64,000 nucleotides of DNA from Spizellomyces punctatus DAOM BR117 (GCA_000182565.2 KQ257470.1); one strand, 5' to 3'. Positions 53,168-64,000 are shown, numbered from the stretch's first letter. Numbers and translations: made by a program. The notes: a model not told the origin generated them from the sequence alone.

Positions 53168-54212
53168 TTCCAGCAGTTGGTGGAAACGTGCTTGCCATCT
53201 GCTTCGGCAGATGTATGCTCACACCGCGCCCCGACGCTTTGGCGAGCCATTGGGGTTCGCCATACTAGCTTTCTGGTGATCTGACTGACCCTGATGACCA
53301 ACAATACCACGAATGAGTATCGCCAAAAGGCATGGATAAAAAATGGCCCGCAGACCCTGAACGATAGCGATTAGAGGACAACTTCCGATTCGGTGAACTC
53401 TTTTGGCGTGAAAAGCAGATGTTACAAAACGTAGGAGGGCCGGCCAGAACGTTCGTCTGTCCTTTGGCATCACACTGGTTTCACCCGCGATGCATAGTCA
53501 TTTGTCGCTCGAAAAGCGCAATGTGCATCTACATTAACATGAACTTGAGAGATGAAAGTCATAGCGCTAGCGCTCAAACACTTGATGCAGGGCACATCAC
53601 CTTCATGGCATTAAATTTTTTGCGTTCAGTAGCCAATAGAGGCAATCTTAAGATGGTTATTGGGCGATCTACATACGTATCATGCAAAAATTGTTCGTGC
53701 CAAGTTTCCAGTATAGCTTCCCCAGAAACGCACGAGTACTAGATGGATAAAGGGGAAGTGTGACGATTGGATCGCTTATCAAAGGCAAGAGAAACTTGTT
53801 CCAAACCAGTTTCGTTTAGCATTGCCCTGCGTTGGTGGGCACCCATTTGGAGCAAGTGTTGTGTACTTAAAGCCAGCTCGGATATGTGTTCAAGCAAAAC
53901 TCATTCTCAAACCACCATGCGCACCTACAGCTAAAAACCTAAAAATTGGATGACCATACCCGACCACCACATACTGCTGCGGGTGGCACTACTGGTCTGT
54001 AATTACTTCATCCAAATGAATTGTGGACTCATCCCCACTCTGGTAACAGTAAATAATACTGGCAGTTCCCCGGCTGTTAGTGACATGACGCTCGCATATT
54101 AGCGCTAGGAATGGAAATCTGGTTGTGGTCGCAAATGGAGAAGACATGCATGAAACAAGTGATTAACATCACAAGCACGCGTAGTGTGAAACGAGGTCTG
54201 ATATCTGTCTTT

Positions 54213-54219
54213 TATATAA
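54213..54219 (+). promoter_or_regulatory. TATA box of aspartic protease gene
   Basis: TATATAA about 47 bp upstream of ATG 54266. Confidence 0.45.
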
Positions 54220-54265
54220 GACTAGAGTCCAAGGTTGACATGTCTCGCCGTCTCACTTGCACTCA

Positions 54266-55720
54266 ATGATATTCACACACTTCTTTGCCATCATCAGTTT
54301 GGTTACTGCATCGGTCGCTCTGCCGGCAGCCGTTCCAGGGATCATAACCGTTCCGCTTGATCGCGTCGACTCGACAAGTGATCTCAAAAATGCCGGCTCT
54401 TTCGCAGCTCGGGCTGCCAACCGATATATCTCTAGGTCTGTCGAAACACGGTCGACTTTACCTTCCAAATTGATGCCGCGTCAAGTTGCTTCCAAGGAGG
54501 AGGGTTTCGCCAGCATTTTCCGTAGACAGAAAGGTGACGACGGAATAAATACTGCAAAGAATGTAAACATGTACGACTCTTTATTGTTTGAATACGTCTT
54601 GCACTGTATATCTGACTTATTTTGTAGCACCGTACTACAAGGCGGCGCCCTTCGGATGAGAATTGATGTTGGAACTCCTCCACGGCCCTATGGTGGTAAG
54701 TAAGCGCATTGCTGGCTTGTATGTGTCGTGACAGTTTGTACTAAAGCATTCTATAACGGTCAGTCGCCCTTGATTCGTCATCGGCAGATCTATGGCTAGC
54801 ATCGCCAGATTGCAAAACATGCGTTGGATAGTAAGTGAGTGAAATTGTGCGTCATCGCAAATTCGTTAAATGATGATTGTTTGCCGAGCAGTGAGCCCTA
54901 CGTTGCTTCCAAGAGCAGCACAGGCAAGGTATCTGACAAAAAGTTTGTCGTTGCCTATAACGAGGGCAGCCTCCGTGTCGATGTGACGGGAGTCACCGAC
55001 GACTTGATCTTTGGTGGATTTCCTATCAAACAGCAGCCATTTGCTCAGGCAGACAAGATTCCAAAAGGGTTTCAAGACGTGCCTTTTGACGGTGTCCTTG
55101 GGTTGGCTTTCTCAGCACACTCCGAACAAAAAGCTCCACCATTGCTTCAAAGCCTCGTCGATCAAAAAGTGATCAAATCAGCATCGTTTGCTCTCCATAT
55201 CCCTGCTGGAAAGAAACAGGCGACAATGACAATAGGGGGTATTGATCCTACAAAGTTCTCTGGCGAGATTGACTTTGTACCTGTCGACAATGCTGCTGGA
55301 CAATGGGGCCTGAATATCGATCAGATTGTGGCACAGGGTAAAGCAGTAGATGTTGGGACTAAGAAAGGCATTCTGGACACGGGGACATCGGTTTTGCTTG
55401 GTCCAATGGAGGACGTGCGAAAAGTGTTTGCGGCGATCCCTGGCTCTGCGGAAATGGCGAACGGCACATTTACCGTTCCCTGCAATCAAGATAATTCTTT
55501 TGCGCTCAAATTGGGAGGCAAGGACTATGGTTTGAATGGCGTAGACTTTCTCGATGAGATTTTCTCGGTAGCTGGGCCGAACAATGCAAACTGCGTCGCT
55601 GCATTGAGCGGAGATCAAAAAATCAAGTCATGGGTTATCGGAACGCCTTTCCTCCAGAAATTTTACACCGTCTGGGATCTGTCCGTTCCACGGTTTGGGC
55701 TAGCTAAAAAAGTCGAGTGA
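54266..55720 (+). CDS. Secreted pepsin-like (A1) aspartic protease
   Basis: Signal peptide MIFTHFFAIISLVTASVA; VGTPPRPY, ALDSSSADLW, FDGVLGLAF, ILDTGTS and WVIGTPFLQKFYTVWD. Confidence 0.88.
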
Positions 55721-56174
55721 AGAAACGGGACGCATGAGCGACACGCGATAGCAACCAAAGAGCGTATAGATCACAGCTATCAAGTCGCTCCAGAGGCCAG
55801 CAATGGCTTGATCACATTACGGCAGACCGTTCCTCTATCCAGGCTGCATTCTCTACATATACAATATTTCAACGGAAAAAGACTGGTTCTTGGTGTTCTT
55901 TGGGAAATAACAGTGGGGAGTTATAGACGTTGGAGGTACCCAACAATTGTTAGTTTTAGATGTGTGTTAAAAAGTATTCTGTTCAAATTCTTGGGCAAAT
56001 AAATGTGTTGAATGGTGTTTTCGTGTGCTGTTTCCTGGCAGTTGCGTCGCGCGACTAAGCCCTTTGGGTGTCACGTGGAGCAGCGCTTTCTAGCAAAGCT
56101 GCGGAGGCATTTGCTGTCTACCAATATCTCTGCATGTGTCAGCCATATCCAACAAAAGTCTATACAGCCAGAAG

Positions 56175-58297
56175 CTAATCTGATTCGTCACCACTGCTCA
56201 TGGCGGCGCTACTCGTCCGCACCTCTTCAAACCCTCCTACCCACACTTCATAAGTTTTTGGATCACAGTACTTGCCAACGACCGTTTCCTGGATTTGTTG
56301 TGCGTAGTCAAAGTCCTGCTTAGCTGCTGGTACCTCTGATAACGGTCTCATTCCCCATTCTCGTAAGCCAGCGGCGGTGACAGGGGCAACAGAAGAATTA
56401 CGGCCCACTTTGCGAACATTTGCCCATATCCACCGTAACGGTGACGGGCGTAGCGGGAGTCCTTCCGGGGAAAGAACAAGGTTTGTGAAATCGTGATGCA
56501 CTTGGTCAAGGACTATTTTCCACGCAAACCCTCGCTTTCGTGTTTGGTGACCAATTGCAAGTACATTGTCCAAGTCGCCCGTTTCCATGTTCCAATCAGC
56601 CAGCATAACGGAATAAATCGTCCGCTTTCCGCTACTTTCTTCCCAGGTACTTCCACCAGGTGTATGGGCCGACGCACTTCGCTTTGGTCGCAACCATTTG
56701 ACGACAAGATATCTCCGACAGATCGGCCTCATCTCTTTATCTTCACCATACACCATCTGTCGCATTTCCTCTCGCACATGCTCGATATTTCCATTGAGCT
56801 CATCCCACGTTTTACAATTAGGTATGTGCTCCATAATTTTCGGTTGTGCATGTGCATGCAACATAATATCATCGACGGAGGCAAGGATAGCTGAGATCAA
56901 GTCTTGCGAGGGCGGTTTTGAAAGCGCCCGGGAATTTGGCATATGCGCGGGGTTAGAAATCAACCGTATGTCGCTGTGCACTTCAGAGTGCACACCAAAC
57001 CGTTCGTGTGACAAGGAGCACGTAAGACGATTAGCGGCAAAGAGTTGTGTTGGCCTCCATTTGCCTGTTCGATACTTTCCTCCACCGCCGCAATCACTAT
57101 TTACAAAATGCTATCAGAATCAAAAAGAGACCAATGATTGGTAGCTGTATGTAAAATACCTGCATAGAGAATACTTGTTGTGGCACTACAATCGGATATC
57201 GGCCAGGTGACATCAGCAAAGATCCATCATGTGCAAACGTTGAAAATAAGCGACTTACGGCGATGCAAACTACCTCCCACCGCAAACCCGGGTTCCCCCG
57301 TCGATCCCGCGCTTATCATCGCACTGTGTACTCCTCCCACTCCAGCCTTTCTTTTGCAAACATCGCAGCCGAGAGATTTGTCGCTAGGTCCCAATAGTGA
57401 CTCCTTTCGCTTCTTGTATGGCGGCTCGGACGAGGTGCTCTGCTTCGACGCTCCTCCTTTTTCCCGTGCAGCACACGATGTACACCGTATATTAACGACA
57501 TAAGGCTCAGCAAGCTGTTCTTCCGTCCCATGCAAATACAAATGCGCTACAGGGGTCGAACAATCCCGGCATGTGGCATCAGTCTCCTTCATCTCACGTT
57601 TGCGGCGTCTTCGGCCATTATTTGTTTGCGCTGTTTGCGGTATGTCACTCTTGCTGGACGGCAATGATGGTGACGACTGCCCTATGCTAGCATACGGGGA
57701 AGAGGACGAGGATGCATTTTCCAATGCATAGTCTGCCCAGTTCTCGTCAACCAAATTCCCCTCAGCATCCTGGACGTTCAGATCGTCCTCCATCATTGGT
57801 GTGAAGAGATCTCTGGTGAAAGACATTTGTCCAACCCAACCATCCAAAAAATTGTTGTGTGAGAGTTCCGGGGTGTCCGATACAGAAATGGAATTTAATG
57901 GCACATCCGATGCATAGGAGGTTGGACTATGGGAGTATTGGCCAATGTCAATGGGAAGGTGGACCGATGCTCCCCATGACTCAACGTTCGGCACGGGAGC
58001 AGAAGGTTCGGGAGGTGTTATGGGCAAGAGGTGCAATGGCTGGGCCATAGAATGTGTACCAGTTGAATGCCCTGACGTCGCCACATTCCCCAACCCACTT
58101 GCATCAGAAGCTAGCGCCCTTTTCTCTCGTATTATCTCCAGCTCCAGTTCTTTGGCTTTTCTTTCTTCCTCTTTTGCCGCCTTCTCCGCTTCCTTTGCCA
58201 GTCTATGCTCTTGCAATATGGAGAGAATGAGCTGAAGAGAGGTTTCCGACGCATCGGAGGGTATCCTGTCGATAAGAGCTGTGAACGGGTCCGCCAT
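56175..58297 (-). CDS. Uncharacterised fungal Cys-rich (multi-CxxC) protein; apparent +1 frameshift at ~57276-57278
   Basis: CRDC, CTSC, CDVC, then EVVCIA|CHNKYSLCS|DCGGGGKYRTGKWRP...TCSLSHER across two GT-AG introns. A continuous frame requires removing one base. Confidence 0.65.
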
Positions 58298-59304
58298 TCT
58301 CTAGTGGTCTTTCTACCACCCAACGTCCGGTCTATCGTCATATGCCCAACCAAAACACTCCAATTCCAGCGAGAAATATTTTGGGCCGTTTCGGAATTCG
58401 ATGTGGAGTAGCACTAGAACCACACTTGGTAGGCTTTGGAAGCGTCGAACCATAGATTGGAATGCTTAAATCTGCCGCTGGCTTGATCGTCCGTTCCATT
58501 GGACTTGACCGTTCTTTACCTCTTGAGATTTACATCGGTGTGCAGTTGGCATAATTGAAGAAACTAAAATCCAAACAGTTCTCGCTCAAGCAGAAAGACA
58601 AACTGTATAGAATAATTTATTACATTCTGTGAAGGCTCTTCCGGAGGCCAGCCAAGGTCAGTCCATGGCGAATCTCATCTGACCATAGTGTAAATAGACA
58701 TATTTCTCGATTGCAGAATGCTCTCATGGAGGATGGTAAGTTAATATCAAATGGATATTTATGATTTGTATATGTCAGATGTGAAGCTGTATATTTTGGA
58801 GGCCGGTAAGCTGACACACTCCGAGTTAACCGCGGCTGTTCCAAATCGCTGTCGCCATGATGCTTTTAGATGGGTATGTGACGGAGAACATAGCGGCACT
58901 GTTATCTTATGAAATGACACAGACATGTAAATCCTCTCTACGTATCGCATGTCGAGTGTCGGCGTCCTGTTTCTAATATCCAACAACTACCAGAAACATT
59001 GTTAAGATTTCCTATTTGTCGTCAGCGAACAGCAGTTTACTGTAACAGAGGCTGATACCGCTGAGGATGGAACAGTAGCGGCTAAGTGGGAGAAGCACCT
59101 AGATATTTTTTTGATGCAGAGAGACTAACTATGCAATCAGAAAGAGATAATTAGAAGAAGAAAAGCCTGATACCGCATAAAGGAGGTATCTTTGTTCGTA
59201 GTTATAAGCAGCTAGTAGTTTGCAACGATTAAGTCGCATGCAGATTTAGGATATCATGAAATGTTTTCAATATCCATTCCATAATTCTCCTTCGAACATT
59301 TATA

Positions 59305-59332
59305 GTGCGGAGCCGATGGGTATTGGCACTAG
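59305..59332 (+). repeat. Left terminal inverted repeat of the Fanzor element (GTGCGGAGCCGATGGGTATTGGCACTAG), preceded by TATA
   Basis: The reverse complement CTAGTGCCAATACCCATCGGCTCCGCAC-TA matches, from recall, the 3' end of the SpuFz1 omegaRNA scaffold/right TIR with one mismatch. Confidence 0.75.
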
Positions 59333-59405
59333 TACATATTCCAACCAATTTAATCATAATTTTACTCGATTTAGACTCATGAACTATGGTTTGATCCAAA
59401 AATCC

Positions 59406-59412
59406 TATATAA
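59406..59412 (+). promoter_or_regulatory. TATA box upstream of the Fanzor ORF
   Basis: TATATAA about 52 bp before ATG 59464, inside the element. Confidence 0.5.
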
Positions 59413-59463
59413 GTTGTCGTCGCCCATTTTCCCAGGCTTTCATCTTTTTCTACAGATATCATC

Positions 59464-60393
59464 ATGCCACCAAAGAAGAAGCAAAAGCTTGAAAAACTCG
59501 ACAAACCCACTTTACATACCTGCAACAAGACTTCCTTTGCAAAAGCTTTCCTGCCAAACTATCACCAACGGCTTCGAGATTACATCGCCATCATCCATCA
59601 ACTTGCTGATCATGCTTCCCACGCTCTCAAATTCTACATCCTATCTGCACCAACCTTTCCCACAGTAAATGAAGATACAATCGAAGCCATACTGTATCTT
59701 CTCAACAAGGGGGAGGCTTGGCAACCAAGAATGGATGCAAAGAAGGCGATACGCGGATGCTTGTTGCCATATGTTCAATGGTACTGCCAAATTGTCGGCT
59801 TCTTTCACCCAAATCTACGAGGCGAGCAGCAGTCAATCAATTACCTGACAGCGAGTATGATGACAAACCTGAAGGTCAACGTTCAAGAACATTTCATGAT
59901 GATGCTGCTCCGATATATCAATCTGCGGCTTGACGTGAAGGGACGGAAAGGGCAACTGCCACCGAAAAGCGATGCGCGAAAAGCTTTCTTTACTCGGCTA
60001 CGCTATTTAAAGTCAGTTTTTCTTTTTGATATCGTGCCCGAGTCGCTGGATGACTTGACTGCTGAAGAGAGTGAGCTTCTAGAAGAGATCTGGACACTTA
60101 ACCTGCCATTTCCTGATCAAGACAAGCTGCTTGCCTACCTCATTGCCATTGACGCGATGTCCTTCTTTCCTGCATACTGTTGGTTGTCAAGCCTATATGA
60201 AAAGCATGGATTTCGATGGTTCAGTGCCATACCTCTGCCCCGCTCACTCATCCAAAGCCACATTCGCATCGACTCCAAAATCCTGTACCAGCATATCCTT
60301 TGCATCACGCAGCGAGAAGCAGAAGCTGTAGAGAAGGTCGATTTATGGTTGCACGTCTGTAATCTACGTACCAAAGCTTTTCGGTCTCGCTGA
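59464..60393 (+). pseudogene. Fz1: Fanzor1 RNA-guided endonuclease (TnpB/Cas12-related), truncated 309-aa N-terminal WED/REC half
   Basis: MPPKKKQKLE (NLS-like), LHTCNKTSFAKAFLPN, IIHQLADHASHALKFYIL, MMTNLKVNVQEHF, FSAIPL.RSLIQSHIRID and TKAFRSR closely match the N-terminal half of Spizellomyces SpuFz1 as recalled. The stop codon is formed at the junction with the repeat array. Confidence 0.87.
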
Positions 60394-60572
60394 TAATATG
60401 ATATACCCGGCTTATAATATGATATACCCGGCTTATAATATGATATACCCGGCTTATAATATGATATACCCGGCTTATAATATGATATACCCGGCTTATA
60501 ATATGATATACCCGGCTTATAATATGATATACCTGGCTTATAATATGATATACCCGGCTTATAATATGATAT
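60393..60572. repeat. Tandem array, 21-bp unit ATAATATGATATACCCGGCTT, 8 full copies plus a partial copy
   Basis: Directly visible; copy 7 has CCTGG instead of CCCGG; no spacers. Confidence 0.97.
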
Positions 60573-60589
60573 TAATAAGCCGTATTGAA

Positions 60590-60657
60590 GTGTTTGCCCA
60601 ATGCATTGGAGTGTTTCAAAGTGTTTCAAAGTGTTTCGAGTCTTCCAAGGTGTTTGT
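60590..60657. repeat. Short GTGTTT(C/G) iterated repeats, including a 10-bp GTGTTTCAAA tandem
   Basis: GTGTTTGCC, GTGTTTCAAA x2, GTGTTTCGAG and GTGTTTGTCC just inside the array. Confidence 0.75.
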
Positions 60658-60899
60658 CCAAGTCCGGGACTATTGATGAAGGGATGTGCGCATCTACGCC
60701 GAAAATTTTCTCTGACATACACGTAAAGTTTTACGCATCTAATATTTCGCATGTCCAAACTCCACCTAATTCAAAGTCAACACTGGTTCTAACTTGACAT
60801 TCGCTTCTTCTCAAGACTCCATGGTTCGTGTTCCCTTGGGCGGTTCATTTGGTGATTTTACTTGAGCAAATTCTTGCCACTAGGTTCAAATGCCACACT

Positions 60900-61446
60900 T
60901 TATGAAATCACTTTATCTTGGGACTCCATCTCTCCACCTTCCTTTACTGATGGTACTCGGGAGACCTTCAGTCTCAACACTTTTCGTTGTTTGCGGTAGA
61001 TTGTGGAAATCTCCATCACTTGGTCTTCTGTATATCCTGCCTCCATCAGCCCCTGCTTGTCTTTTGCTTAAACAAGCCCCATTGCTTCTCCTCGGCGAAA
61101 GATGTTACATACACAGCTGCCTCTTGTGGAGATAAGATCGTCCTCACAATATGCCCGCCAGCAACGTAGCAGTTGGATTCAATGTACGGTTGAGCGCTTA
61201 AGTGCTAATACGTAACGTTGATTGCAACACTCCGAAGCCAGACCCTGCATGCATCTCAGCTGTGGTGATTCAACAGTCNNNNNNNNNNNNNNNNNNNNNN
61301 NNNNNNNNNNNNNNNNNNNNNNNNNNNNNNNNNNNNNNNNNNNNNNNNNNNNNNNNNNNNNNNNNNNNNNNNNNNNNNGTGAGTTGGTAGAACCTCTTCA
61401 TCTCATTTAGCTCTTCTTCACTTGCTCGCCTCATCATTTTCTCCAT
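60900..61446 (-). pseudogene. Possible degraded ORF of unknown function spanning an assembly gap
   Basis: Begins MEKMMRRASEEELNEMKRFYQL before the gap. After it, YIESNCYVAGGHIVRT...WGLFKQK and DKQGLMEAGYTEDQVMEISTIYRKQRK lie in different frames. Confidence 0.3.
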
Positions 61447-61729
61447 TGTTAATTGCAGCTGTATTCGAATGTTGTATATGGAATCGTTTTTGAAAAGAAG
61501 GCTTCGAGCTGGGGAGACCGGCGACCCTCTTTTATAAACGGAAAAGGAACTCTCCCATCTTATCGATATGATGGCCTTCTTTTATGTCCCATCTGATCCA
61601 TATGTTTCCTTATGTTTCCTTTGAAGAATAATGATTCTATCGATACTTTCCCTCATATTTCATGTGACCTTTCTATCGACAGTAACCTTTCACAAAAAAG
61701 GGAAACTAATGGAGATGCTGGAAAAAATC

Positions 61730-62059
61730 CTAGAACTAGGGCTTTTTCACAACATGCCCATTTTCGCTCACTGCTCCACAAAAACAGCTCTAGAATCCTA
61801 GCCCTTTTTTTGCCCGGTCTTCTCTACTTTTCAAAAAATTTTCATTTTTTTTTTTCAAAATTGAAATTTGATTCCATTTGTGAGATTTGACCCGGGAAAA
61901 TGGGCTAGAATGGCTAGGATTCTTGTCTTTTGCTATGTAGGGTATTTTATACTACTAATAAATAAATATATATATTCTTATATGTTAAATTATACTACAT
62001 ACATGTAGAGAGAACAAAACCTAGCCATCGAAAAACTAGGATGAGCTAGGATGTACTAG
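61730..62059. promoter_or_regulatory. Origin-like non-coding region: 10 CTAG iterons, 12-bp perfect inverted repeat, AT-rich cores
   Basis: AGAATCCTAGCC (61792-61803) and GGCTAGGATTCT (61912-61923) flank a T/A-rich core; CTAGGA repeated at 10-bp spacing at 62036, 62046 and 62056. Confidence 0.5.
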
Positions 62060-62143
62060 GAATTCTTTTTCCTTTCACTGCTTTAGCTTCTTACTCCTAC
62101 TTTTTCTACCATCTCTACCTTCAATTGTTCTCGCTTATACCCC

Positions 62144-62808
62144 CTAGCGCCTTTTGTAATGTTTTATGCAGTAGATTTTCCATGCTGGCTCTGTTAAGTG
62201 GATTCTTTTCTTGCAGCCTTCCTGTGCACAATCTCTGGTTTTCCTCCGACTTGTCCTTGCAGAACACGTGGTGGTAATAGCCATCCCTTTGCTTTTCTGC
62301 CAGTCTGGTAGACACATTGTCTTCCATGTACGCTCTTTTTCATCGGAACANNNNNNNNNNNNNNNNNNNNNNNNNNNNNNNNNNNNNNNNNNNNNNNNNN
62401 NNNNNNNNNNNNNNNNNNNNNNNNNNNNNNNNNNNNNNNNNNNNNNNNNNTCTGGGAATGACAAAAATCACATACTTCATTGTTGAGCGCACCTTCTTTC
62501 TTATACTGTTTTTCACACAGTAAACATTTCCGCATCGTATTGACAAGTTCCTGTCTCATCTTGGCTGCCCTTTCCACCTCTTCATCTGGGAAAAACCGCT
62601 TTATACAGCAGTTGCCAATGACAAGTACCTTTCCGGTATAGATGTTCTGGACAAAACAGTTCTCTTTGATGGGATGTGTACAAAGGCAGCGGTTTTCCTT
62701 GTCTAAGCGAAAACTCTCAACCTTCCATTCCCGAATGGCTTCCTCAAATAAATCGCTCAAAGATTCATTCGGTAGTTCCCTTGTGAATGTATTGAAATAT
62801 GATGTCAT
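62144..62808 (-). CDS. Cys-rich Zn-binding protein of large-DNA-virus type, spans assembly gap
   Basis: EAIREW...RCLCTHPIKENCFVQN..TGKVLVIGNCCIKRF, CLLC and CDFC; after the gap, CAQEGCKKRI...WKIYCIKHYKRR*. Confidence 0.6.
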
Positions 62809-62848
62809 GCGTGTTCAATATACTTACCACTGTTTATTGTCTATATCT

Positions 62849-63055
62849 TTAAATGGCCGTTTTGTCTGTTTTTGGTACCCTACTTATTGTTATAAAATCA
62901 TGCCACAAGGTTCTCTTGTCGCCCATGACCAACTTTCTAACCGTTAGGTGACATAATGATAGGTCTTTGGCGAGTCTCCTTATCGACGGTGTGCGGATCG
63001 AGGTCTCATTACCGAATCGGTTCACCGTGGCAATGTAGTCAAATTTCGAATGCAT
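62849..63055 (-). CDS. Small basic protein with HTH-like segment
   Basis: 68 aa containing SIRRLAKDLSLCHLTVRKLV; tightly packed with the Zn-protein gene and divergent from Prim-Pol. Confidence 0.4.
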   Translation of the reverse strand: MHSKFDYIATVNRFGNETSIRTPSIRRLAKDLSLCHLTVRKLVMGDKRTLWHDFITISRVPKTDKTAI

Positions 63056-63205
63056 TAGTGGTATGTTGTTTTACTATACTAAGAGGCATATCATTTAAGT
63101 AGTGTCTTTTTTTTCATCGCATTTGTCGAGTTTTTCTGGAACAAAAAAAAGCTACTTAAATACATACGTCCGTGTGTTATACAGATATATCACCAAATTC
63201 AAACC

Positions 63206-64000
63206 ATGCCACAAACACTGCTTTTCCAAACTGCCAAGAAAATGAAGCATGCTAATCCTTCATTCAATCCTATCCCCGCATCTGTCGAGGACAAACGTCC
63301 TTTAGGCAAGTGGAGTGGTACTTCATACCTGTTCGAAAGAGATTTTCCTAAACGTGAACAATGGCAACCGGATTGCAATCTCGGTTTACTGGTATCTGAT
63401 GACTATATTGTCGTGGATGTTGACGCAAAGCCACCCGCGCAACGATCCAAAAGTAAAATCTATAGTGAAGCCCTCGGAACAGTCGACTTTGCAGAACTGG
63501 TTGAGCAAAACGAACCTTTGCCCACTACACTCTCACTCACCACACCCAGTGGAGGAAAACACTTTTACTTTTCTTTGAGTGGTAAGGATGGCGAAAGTAT
63601 CTTGAAAAATTGGACAGCATGCATGACGCGGGAAGACGGCTCTGTTATCGCAGTCGACATTCAGACAAAAGGCGGTTACGTAATGGTTCCACCCAGCAAG
63701 AAGGGATGTCAACGCTATGAATGGGACACAAAGGATGGTTTCAAGGTGCCGATGGCTCCTTTGCCAAACTGGATTCTTAAGAACATTCTTGATGCACATG
63801 GCAAACATCCTCAACATTTTGAGGCTCAGGAGTTTACAGAATCGCCGCACTTAAACAATGAAGTCAGCAATGAAGACATTGAAATGTTCAAAAAAAGCGA
63901 GTTCTGGAAAGACTGTTTCTCCATCTCTTCAAGACCAGATCACAACAATCTGTACATTATCACAGCAAGTGTGCCCTATGATTGCTCAATTTGCAACAGA
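63206..64000 (+). CDS. Bifunctional DNA primase/polymerase (Prim-Pol, AEP superfamily), 3'-partial
   Basis: Hand translation from ATG 63206 is open for 265 codons to the window end: DKRPLGKW, CNLGLLV..YIVVDVD, TTPSGGKHFYF, VDIQTKGGYVMVPPS, YEW and APLPNW, then CSIC at the edge. Confidence 0.88.
   Translation, partial: MPQTLLFQTAKKMKHANPSFNPIPASVEDKRPLGKWSGTSYLFERDFPKREQWQPDCNLGLLVSDDYIVVDVDAKPPAQRSKSKIYSEALGTVDFAELVEQNEPLPTTLSLTTPSGGKHFYFSLSGKDGESILKNWTACMTREDGSVIAVDIQTKGGYVMVPPSKKGCQRYEWDTKDGFKVPMAPLPNWILKNILDAHGKHPQHFEAQEFTESPHLNNEVSNEDIEMFKKSEFWKDCFSISSRPDHNNLYIITASVPYDCSICNR

Follow-up and report, generated by a model that had tools for sequence, protein, structure and literature searches.

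In Polinton-like viruses (PLVs), a primase-helicase module occupies the place of the protein-primed polymerase of Polintons, and its replication protein joins an N-terminal archaeo-eukaryotic primase (AEP) to a C-terminal superfamily 3 (SF3) helicase in one polypeptide. The same layout is found in the family of a primase gene that we observed at the end of a 64,000-nucleotide stretch of the chytrid fungus Spizellomyces punctatus DAOM BR117 (GCA_000182565.2, KQ257470.1); the whole stretch, numbered from its first base, is called the window hereafter. PLVs are integrating elements of 14-40 kb of unicellular eukaryotes, and Bellas & Sommaruga 2021 (PMC7805220) report one integrated in S. punctatus, which may be the one at our locus or another. 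The preprint of Bellas et al. 2026 (10.64898/2026.06.19.733378) places PLV-type A32 packaging ATPases in numerous chytrid genomes and gives AEP-SF3 fusions as a common PLV replication module, and PMC11296320 mentions distant matches of a PLV helicase in chytrid fungi. The archaeal plasmid protein pRN1 ORF904 (PDB 1rni, 3m1m, 9aam) and the phage NrS-1 primase-polymerase (PDB 6a9w, 7rr4) resemble the window gene in being AEPs of the Prim-Pol clade, with the DxD, sGxH and D motifs and a helicase in the same protein; they differ from it in that the host of the window gene is a eukaryote and in that, in the window family, a zinc motif of the form C-x2-C-x3-H-x5-H comes after the catalytic domain. 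The P4-family primases (TIGR01613) and the D5-like helicase-primases of Nucleocytoviricota share with homologues of the window gene a half composed of D5_N and SF3 helicase. On the evidence given below, the window gene is probably the replication protein of an integrated virus-like mobile element in the chytrid nuclear genome, most likely a PLV.

The gene is represented by an open reading frame (ORF) on the plus strand, which starts with an ATG and is open to the last base of the window (63206-64000, 265 codons). An initial annotation, made from the sequence alone, had called it a Prim-Pol primase-polymerase gene, and all the features on which it relied were present in the translation, namely the intron-less frame open to the window edge, DVD, TPSGGKHFYF (residues 113-122, nt 63542-63571), DIQTKGGYVMVPPS (residues 151-164, nt 63656-63697) and a CxxC seven bases short of the window edge. 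The Pfam profile hidden Markov model of Prim-Pol (PF09250) confirmed the identification: it matched residues 20-189 of the ORF over profile positions 9-158 of 158, with an E value of 1.3e-19 and 71.7 bits against a cut-off of 22.8. Five PHROG families of primases or primase-polymerases also matched (best E 7.7e-14), and an NCBIfam scan of the 265-residue fragment gave no family. The catalytic motifs of AEPs are I (DxD), II (sGxH) and III (hD), and all three were found (Table 1); the one sequence of the ten aligned that departs at motif II is homologue P0012, which has a 22-residue gap at that place. This combination of profile match and motifs far surpasses chance.

When 13 longer homologues were aligned to the window with tblastn, residue 1 of the full-length ones fell on the ATG at 63206 and the alignment was collinear over all 265 residues. 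Therefore, the start is conserved and the visible part of the ORF contains no intron. Of the columns without variation among nine full-length homologues the window copy holds all 67, and of those in which eight of the nine agree it holds 33 of 37; to judge from this conservation, the visible third looks functional. The terminal CxxC had been taken for the beginning of a zinc domain, and this was borne out by the homologues, which extend it to an invariant C-x2-C-x3-H-x5-H (C259, C262, H266 and H272 in the numbering of homologue P0005, invariant in nine homologues).

A structure model of the fragment reached a pLDDT of 70.6 in the best of five predictions, the other four being at 42-51. All nine matches of this moderate model in the PDB at E <= 0.001 were to the primase-polymerases of pRN1 ORF904 or phage NrS-1, with a probability of 0.98-1.00, yet at 16-17% identity and with TM-scores of only 0.29-0.39. 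The BFVD returned 84 matches at the same threshold, with a Bodo saltans virus primase-polymerase and phage Prim_Pol proteins at the top. A sequence search of the PDB with the fragment gave just two chance-level matches (E 0.16 and 0.43). The predicted structure thus appears to have the catalytic fold of AEPs, and on score, motifs and fold the protein belongs to Prim-Pol (PF09250), in the PrimPol clade of the AEP superfamily.

Relatives of the ORF were sought in two protein searches, the first limited to lengths of 465-2000 residues and both together covering 427-2000 residues. The first search gave the 13 longer relatives, 50-66% identical to the window ORF, and all eight of those that carry an organism name are from chytrid fungi (Rhizophlyctis rosea three times, Phlyctochytrium arcticum twice, Nowakowskiella, Gaertneriomyces and Borealophlyctis). 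In neither search was any protein more than 66% identical to the window ORF or labelled S. punctatus and, therefore, within the lengths searched the gene seems to be unannotated. The full-length relatives have 778-849 residues. In the six homologues scanned with Pfam, Prim-Pol was above the cut-off in all and D5_N in five, the sixth (P0004) scoring 21.8 against 22.4; DUF5906, which forms the core of SF3 helicases of the D5 type, was found in all six below its cut-off (E 1e-5 to 4e-3). TIGR01613, the C-terminal domain of P4-family phage/plasmid primases, was above its cut-off in both homologues scanned, and a Walker A motif (GxGxNxKS) was present in the homologue alignment further on than the zinc motif. 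The fusion to an SF3/D5 helicase anticipated by the initial annotation was therefore found in the relatives, while its other candidate, a PriCT domain, was not: neither PriCT-1 nor PriCT-2 was detected in any of the six homologues at E <= 0.01, and a C2H2-type motif sits where a PriCT linker would be. Pox_D5 and AEP_C962R were absent from the same six at the same threshold, which distinguishes the chytrid proteins from the P4- and D5-type systems.

The homologues thus belong to the class of fused Prim-Pol/D5_N/SF3-helicase proteins, and the helicase half of the window copy would be expected by comparison with them. The visible ORF would then be the N-terminal third of a primase-helicase gene, comprising the Prim-Pol domain and the start of the zinc motif, and the whole protein would have about 800-850 residues, with a Prim-Pol AEP, a C2H2-type zinc motif, D5_N and an SF3 helicase of the P4/D5 type. 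A helicase-primase module in place of a protein-primed PolB, as in PLVs, appears to be present, its Prim-Pol part being seen here and its helicase part in homologues only. By analogy with pRN1 ORF904, NrS-1 and the D5/P4-type enzymes, the C-terminal SF3 helicase might assemble on the origin of the element and unwind its DNA. On the exposed strand, Prim-Pol would synthesise primers de novo and perhaps extend them, with D71, D73 and D151 holding the metals and H119 the incoming nucleotide, and the zinc motif may help to hold the template, as in pRN1 ORF904.

A profile built from nine homologues was used to score 8000 candidates, and 29 proteins were obtained at E <= 1e-5. The first 22 of these (E <= 3e-110) form one clade, 46-100% identical to P0005, and the 12 members that carry an organism name all come from chytrids. 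At the first match outside this clade identity falls to 25%, so that the chytrid proteins (at least 46%) are cut off from all the others, including the P4- and D5-type proteins. An exhaustive profile search returned 54,050 relatives at E <= 0.001; the superfamily is huge, yet the chytrid clade is well set apart within it. A quick tree was built from residues 1-300 (28 rows, with weak support); in it the window ORF fell inside the clade, near P0002, P0012 (Gaertneriomyces), P0001 and P0009, while four R. rosea copies occupied three places and four P. arcticum copies two. Since several diverged lineages occur per chytrid genome, a mobile or viral family fits better than vertical inheritance. The contigs of several homologues measure 18.8-24.9 kb, the size of a PLV, and other homologues lie within host contigs of 0.3-1.8 Mb; the small contigs span 3-25 kb overall.

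A protein of Spizellomyces sp. 'palustris' (P0200) has the N-terminal Prim-Pol and CxxC module in common with the window ORF, at 31% identity. Its sister in the quick tree (P0133; support of 99 in the SH-aLRT, an approximate likelihood ratio test) has the same domain layout, and both carry a different SF3 helicase half that lacks D5_N and in P0133 is similar to papillomavirus E1. The presence of a related N-terminal module on different SF3 helicases suggests module exchange between related elements.

Sequencing reads over 54000-64000 were taken from two chromatin immunoprecipitation (ChIP) DNA runs of 2026 (X16 and X17), from contigs of a 2020 run (X1) and from one RNA run; the DNA runs carry the same species label and come from different samples. 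The primase gene was covered by raw reads of X16 and X17 and by X1 contigs. About half of the X17 reads disagreed with the window at positions 63249, 63296, 63443 and 63934, and an X1 contig of 876 nt (63107-63982) had 21 differences from it, while four X1 contigs in the flank and at 61.5-61.9 kb had none. Therefore, there is either a second copy, with about 97.6% identity, or a divergent allele. The four variant sites listed correspond to H15R, R31C (at an invariant residue), R80stop and R243S; because of the stop at codon 80 the other copy or allele is a pseudogene, and the window copy is intact as far as it is visible. CpG transitions account for three of these four differences, a hint that the decay of repeated copies is linked to methylation. 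In the part of the RNA run that was read (about 6%), depth was 0-0.06 over 60.7-64 kb and reached 53.6 in a host gene (56.0-56.3 kb), so the primase gene is without detectable transcription in that sample. The initial annotation had held that this is not a standard fungal nuclear gene, and a mobile or viral nature is indeed supported by the several diverged copies per genome, the patchy distribution, the decayed second copy and the lack of detectable RNA.

A PLV is the most likely carrier because of the reports cited above of a PLV in S. punctatus, of PLV-type ATPases in chytrids together with the AEP-SF3 module of PLVs, and of PLV helicase matches in chytrids. A number of observations weigh against this assignment. 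As regards sequence kinship, P0005 gave four pattern matches and no confirmed one in IMG/VR. A profile (A2) gave 343 pattern matches in metagenome contigs, of which one was confirmed, at 21% identity (L001), and in IMG/VR 148 of 357 were confirmed and 80 kept, none exceeding 29% identity over more than about 100 residues. With no close IMG/VR relative, kinship of the window primase to known PLV replicases is not established at the level of sequence; in this it differs from the named PLV systems, and also in that no capsid module or element ends are in view. As regards the locus, no capsid gene, packaging ATPase, integrase, terminal repeat or target-site duplication was visible in 58-64 kb; in particular, neither a double jelly-roll major capsid protein nor a penton protein nor an A32-type ATPase was found there. 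The same interval held no convincing terminal repeat partner, the other end of the element being past the window and the left border undefined. Within the window, the element can include no more than some 0.8 kb of the gene and about 3 kb of the DNA before it, and the linkage of the gene to the host flank crosses two gaps of 100 N. At third codon positions the primase ORF has a GC content (GC3) of 0.438, inside the host range of 0.435-0.527, and therefore composition gives no mark of foreign origin. Finally, the second copy could instead be a divergent allele, the RNA silence rests on the small part of one run that was read, the tree is weakly supported, and the depth of the gene in the ChIP runs relative to the 54-56 kb flank, at about 0.5x in X16 and about 3x in X17, was dropped as a measure of copy number, as the two values disagree and the antibody targets are unknown. 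The comparison of read depth with the host flank suggested by the initial annotation thus confirmed the presence of the gene in two DNA runs and gave no consistent ratio. Its description of the gene as the replicase of an inserted element is supported in so far as the family behaves like a mobile or viral one, and finds no counterpart at the locus in element borders, capsid, integrase or repeats. Since capsid, integrase, element ends and helicase half would lie past the window, we can only infer the type of element.

The best of the other explanations, which we nevertheless consider unlikely, is that the gene is the replicase of a mobile element devoid of a capsid, such as a self-replicating transposon, an integrated plasmid or a transpoviron-like element. 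In fact, the combination of Prim-Pol, D5_N and SF3 helicase also serves plasmids and phages, as shown by the TIGR01613 matches of both homologues and by L003, one of the two loci looked at among the 80 kept from IMG/VR, a tailed phage with a three-domain layout identical to that of the chytrid homologues; the lack of a capsid gene in view and of a close relative in IMG/VR would also agree with such an element. However, the window reaches too short a distance to show that a capsid is absent, homologue contigs of 19-25 kb suit PLVs, and the PLV literature (PMC7805220 and 10.64898/2026.06.19.733378) reports capsid and ATPase genes of PLVs in S. punctatus and other chytrids.

An endogenised giant virus (Nucleocytoviricota, for example Mycodnaviridae) whose D5-like primase-helicase the gene would be, with the window sequence as a fragment of a much larger insertion, is improbable. 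A D5-like helicase-primase is a hallmark of giant viruses, which PMC13533422 reports in zoosporic fungi, and among the best BFVD matches are giant-virus primases, three of them proteins of Bodo saltans virus; yet phage Prim_Pol proteins match the fold about equally well. The AEP is of the Prim-Pol (PF09250) type and not of the AEP_C962R type, which was seen in the other IMG/VR locus looked at, the NCLDV-like (giant-virus-like) L002, and the six homologues scanned have neither Pox_D5 nor PriCT. The homologues lie on contigs of 3-25 kb or in large host contigs, rather than on viral contigs of 200-350 kb. No giant-virus hallmark gene was found among the 14 window ORFs scanned.

A domesticated or vertically inherited chytrid gene, in which a viral-type primase has taken up a cellular task, would explain the intact frame with its 67 conserved invariant residues, the host-like GC3 and the restriction of the family to chytrids among the named matches. 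It is nevertheless very improbable, considering that no RNA was detectable where host neighbours were covered, that the second copy or allele is stopped at codon 80, that the several diverged copies per genome are not placed according to host relations, that the gene sits in a repeat-rich, AT-rich block and that the protein collection apparently has no annotated entry for it. The initial annotation had itself named a contaminant contig as an alternative. Foreign DNA (from bacteria, phages or prey) that contaminates the assembly or was scaffolded wrongly is scarcely credible despite the two 100-N gaps before the host flank and the phage- or plasmid-like architecture and family names, because presence in independent DNA runs (two of 2026 and the contigs of 2020, from different samples under one species label) disfavours a one-off contaminant, the closest relatives (50-66%) are in five other chytrid genera, some within contigs of 0.3-1.8 Mb, the nearest ones outside the chytrid clade are only 25% identical, and GC3 is host-like.

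A bolder proposal, doubtful at present, is that the chytrid-only Prim-Pol/SF3 clade marks an undescribed family of DNA viruses or episome-like elements of about 20-25 kb that live in zoosporic fungi and swap helicase modules; the window copy would be latent and still competent for replication, and may have landed in a Fanzor transposon broken at 60390.

In the full-text literature we found no published description of this primase gene, the matches being papers on PLVs and giant viruses. What is new is a copy that is apparently unannotated and is intact in its visible part, a sharply bounded replicase clade that is chytrid-only and exchanges modules, the decay of a second copy or allele, and the location next to a broken Fanzor transposon. 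Genes and elements of these kinds have already been described and, therefore, the finding extends the catalogue and opens no new question; the example is real and fairly ordinary, of a known kind. It points to a gene that annotation has apparently missed. Zoosporic fungi have only lately been recognised as hosts of DNA viruses (PLVs and Mycodnaviridae), and S. punctatus can be transformed in the laboratory. A primase-helicase that looks intact in its visible part, in a cultivable chytrid, would offer a handle on whether such elements still replicate, and the same gene could help to find out what activates them and whether there is any interaction with giant viruses. The chytrid-restricted replicase lineage could also serve as a marker for finding such elements.

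The surroundings of the gene were analysed along the whole window, and the features are collected in Table 1. From 1 to 58 kb the window contains nuclear genes of the usual eukaryotic kinds, with domains of FANCM, PPR, REV1, thiamine-phosphate synthase and flavin reductase, at a GC content of 0.45-0.50. This supports the fungal scaffold proposed initially, as does an ORF neighbouring the primase that is close to many S. punctatus proteins. Past about 58.3 kb GC goes down from about 0.48 to 0.32-0.46, and the primase gene sits in an AT-rich, repeat-rich and gap-ridden block, with about 2.5 kb of AT-rich DNA that has no long ORFs.

Table 1. Features of the primase ORF and of the DNA preceding it in the window.
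Feature	Position	Strand	Observation
Truncated Fanzor (SpuFz1 family) copy	59464..60393	+	80-83% identity to many S. punctatus proteins
Tandem repeat, 21-bp unit x 8.8 copies, 98% match	60389-60572		starts exactly at the Fanzor breakpoint
Scaffold gap between host flank and primase gene	61279..61378		run of exactly 100 N
Scaffold gap bounding the contig piece with the primase gene	62351..62450		run of exactly 100 N
Cys-rich ORF, divergent from the primase gene, 119 residues visible before the 100-N gap	62451..62808	-	ORF scan
Imperfect 23-nt inverted repeat, 23-nt spacer, A/T run, 83% complementary	63093-63115 / 63139-63161		45-113 nt upstream of the ATG
AEP motif I, D71-V72-D73 (metal-binding DxD)	63416..63424	+	invariant in 10/10 aligned sequences
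AEP motif II, S115-G116-G117-K118-H119 (nucleotide-binding His)	63548..63562	+	kept in 9/10 aligned sequences
AEP motif III, D151, then G156-G157-Y158-V159-M160	63656..63685	+	D151 in at least 90% of 10 sequences; GGYVM invariant
C260-x2-C263, first half of C-x2-C-x3-H-x5-H, His half past the window	63983..63994	+	both Cys invariant

The Fanzor copy comprises the N-terminal residues only (about 310); its tblastn match stops at 60390 and the RuvC half is absent from the window. A member of this family (P0016) matched the S. punctatus Fanzor structure (PDB 8gkh) at E=0, and PF26935 is the precomputed family label. The copy is a separate transposon and no part of the primase gene. Reads of other genomic Fanzor copies continue into different sequence at 60392. 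RNA depth reached 82 on the 5' region of the Fanzor copy, where the reads map to many copies. The tandem repeat at 60389-60572 gives rise to spurious repeat-peptide ORFs on both strands and, matching itself, was the only exception to a repeat search that found no copy of 58-64 kb elsewhere in the window. Pfam gave nothing at E <= 1 for the ORFs 62194-62808 (-), 59464-60393 (+) and 57227-58297 (-). There was no tRNA in 54-64 kb, and therefore no tRNA integration site was visible; an Rfam scan of 56-64 kb gave no family. A scan of 62451-63300 for bacterial-type promoters and terminators, of a type unsuited to a eukaryote, gave nothing. The ChIP peaks of the two runs differed, that of X16 being over 57.3-59.3 kb and that of X17 over 56.0-58.0 kb.

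The ORF listed at 62194-62808 (-) reads through a 100-N gap, and the part from 62451 is its only real sequence. This Cys-rich ORF had no Pfam or PHROG family. The top three of its 30 nearest ESM Atlas clusters were wholly viral, the best at 0.92 and with members in Preplasmiviricota; the 30 clusters have no Pfam family in common. The ORF may belong to the same element as the primase, which we take as a lead only. The inverted repeat in the divergent intergenic region (63093..63161) is possibly a regulatory site. A third run of exactly 100 N, also a scaffold gap, was observed at 1120-1219.

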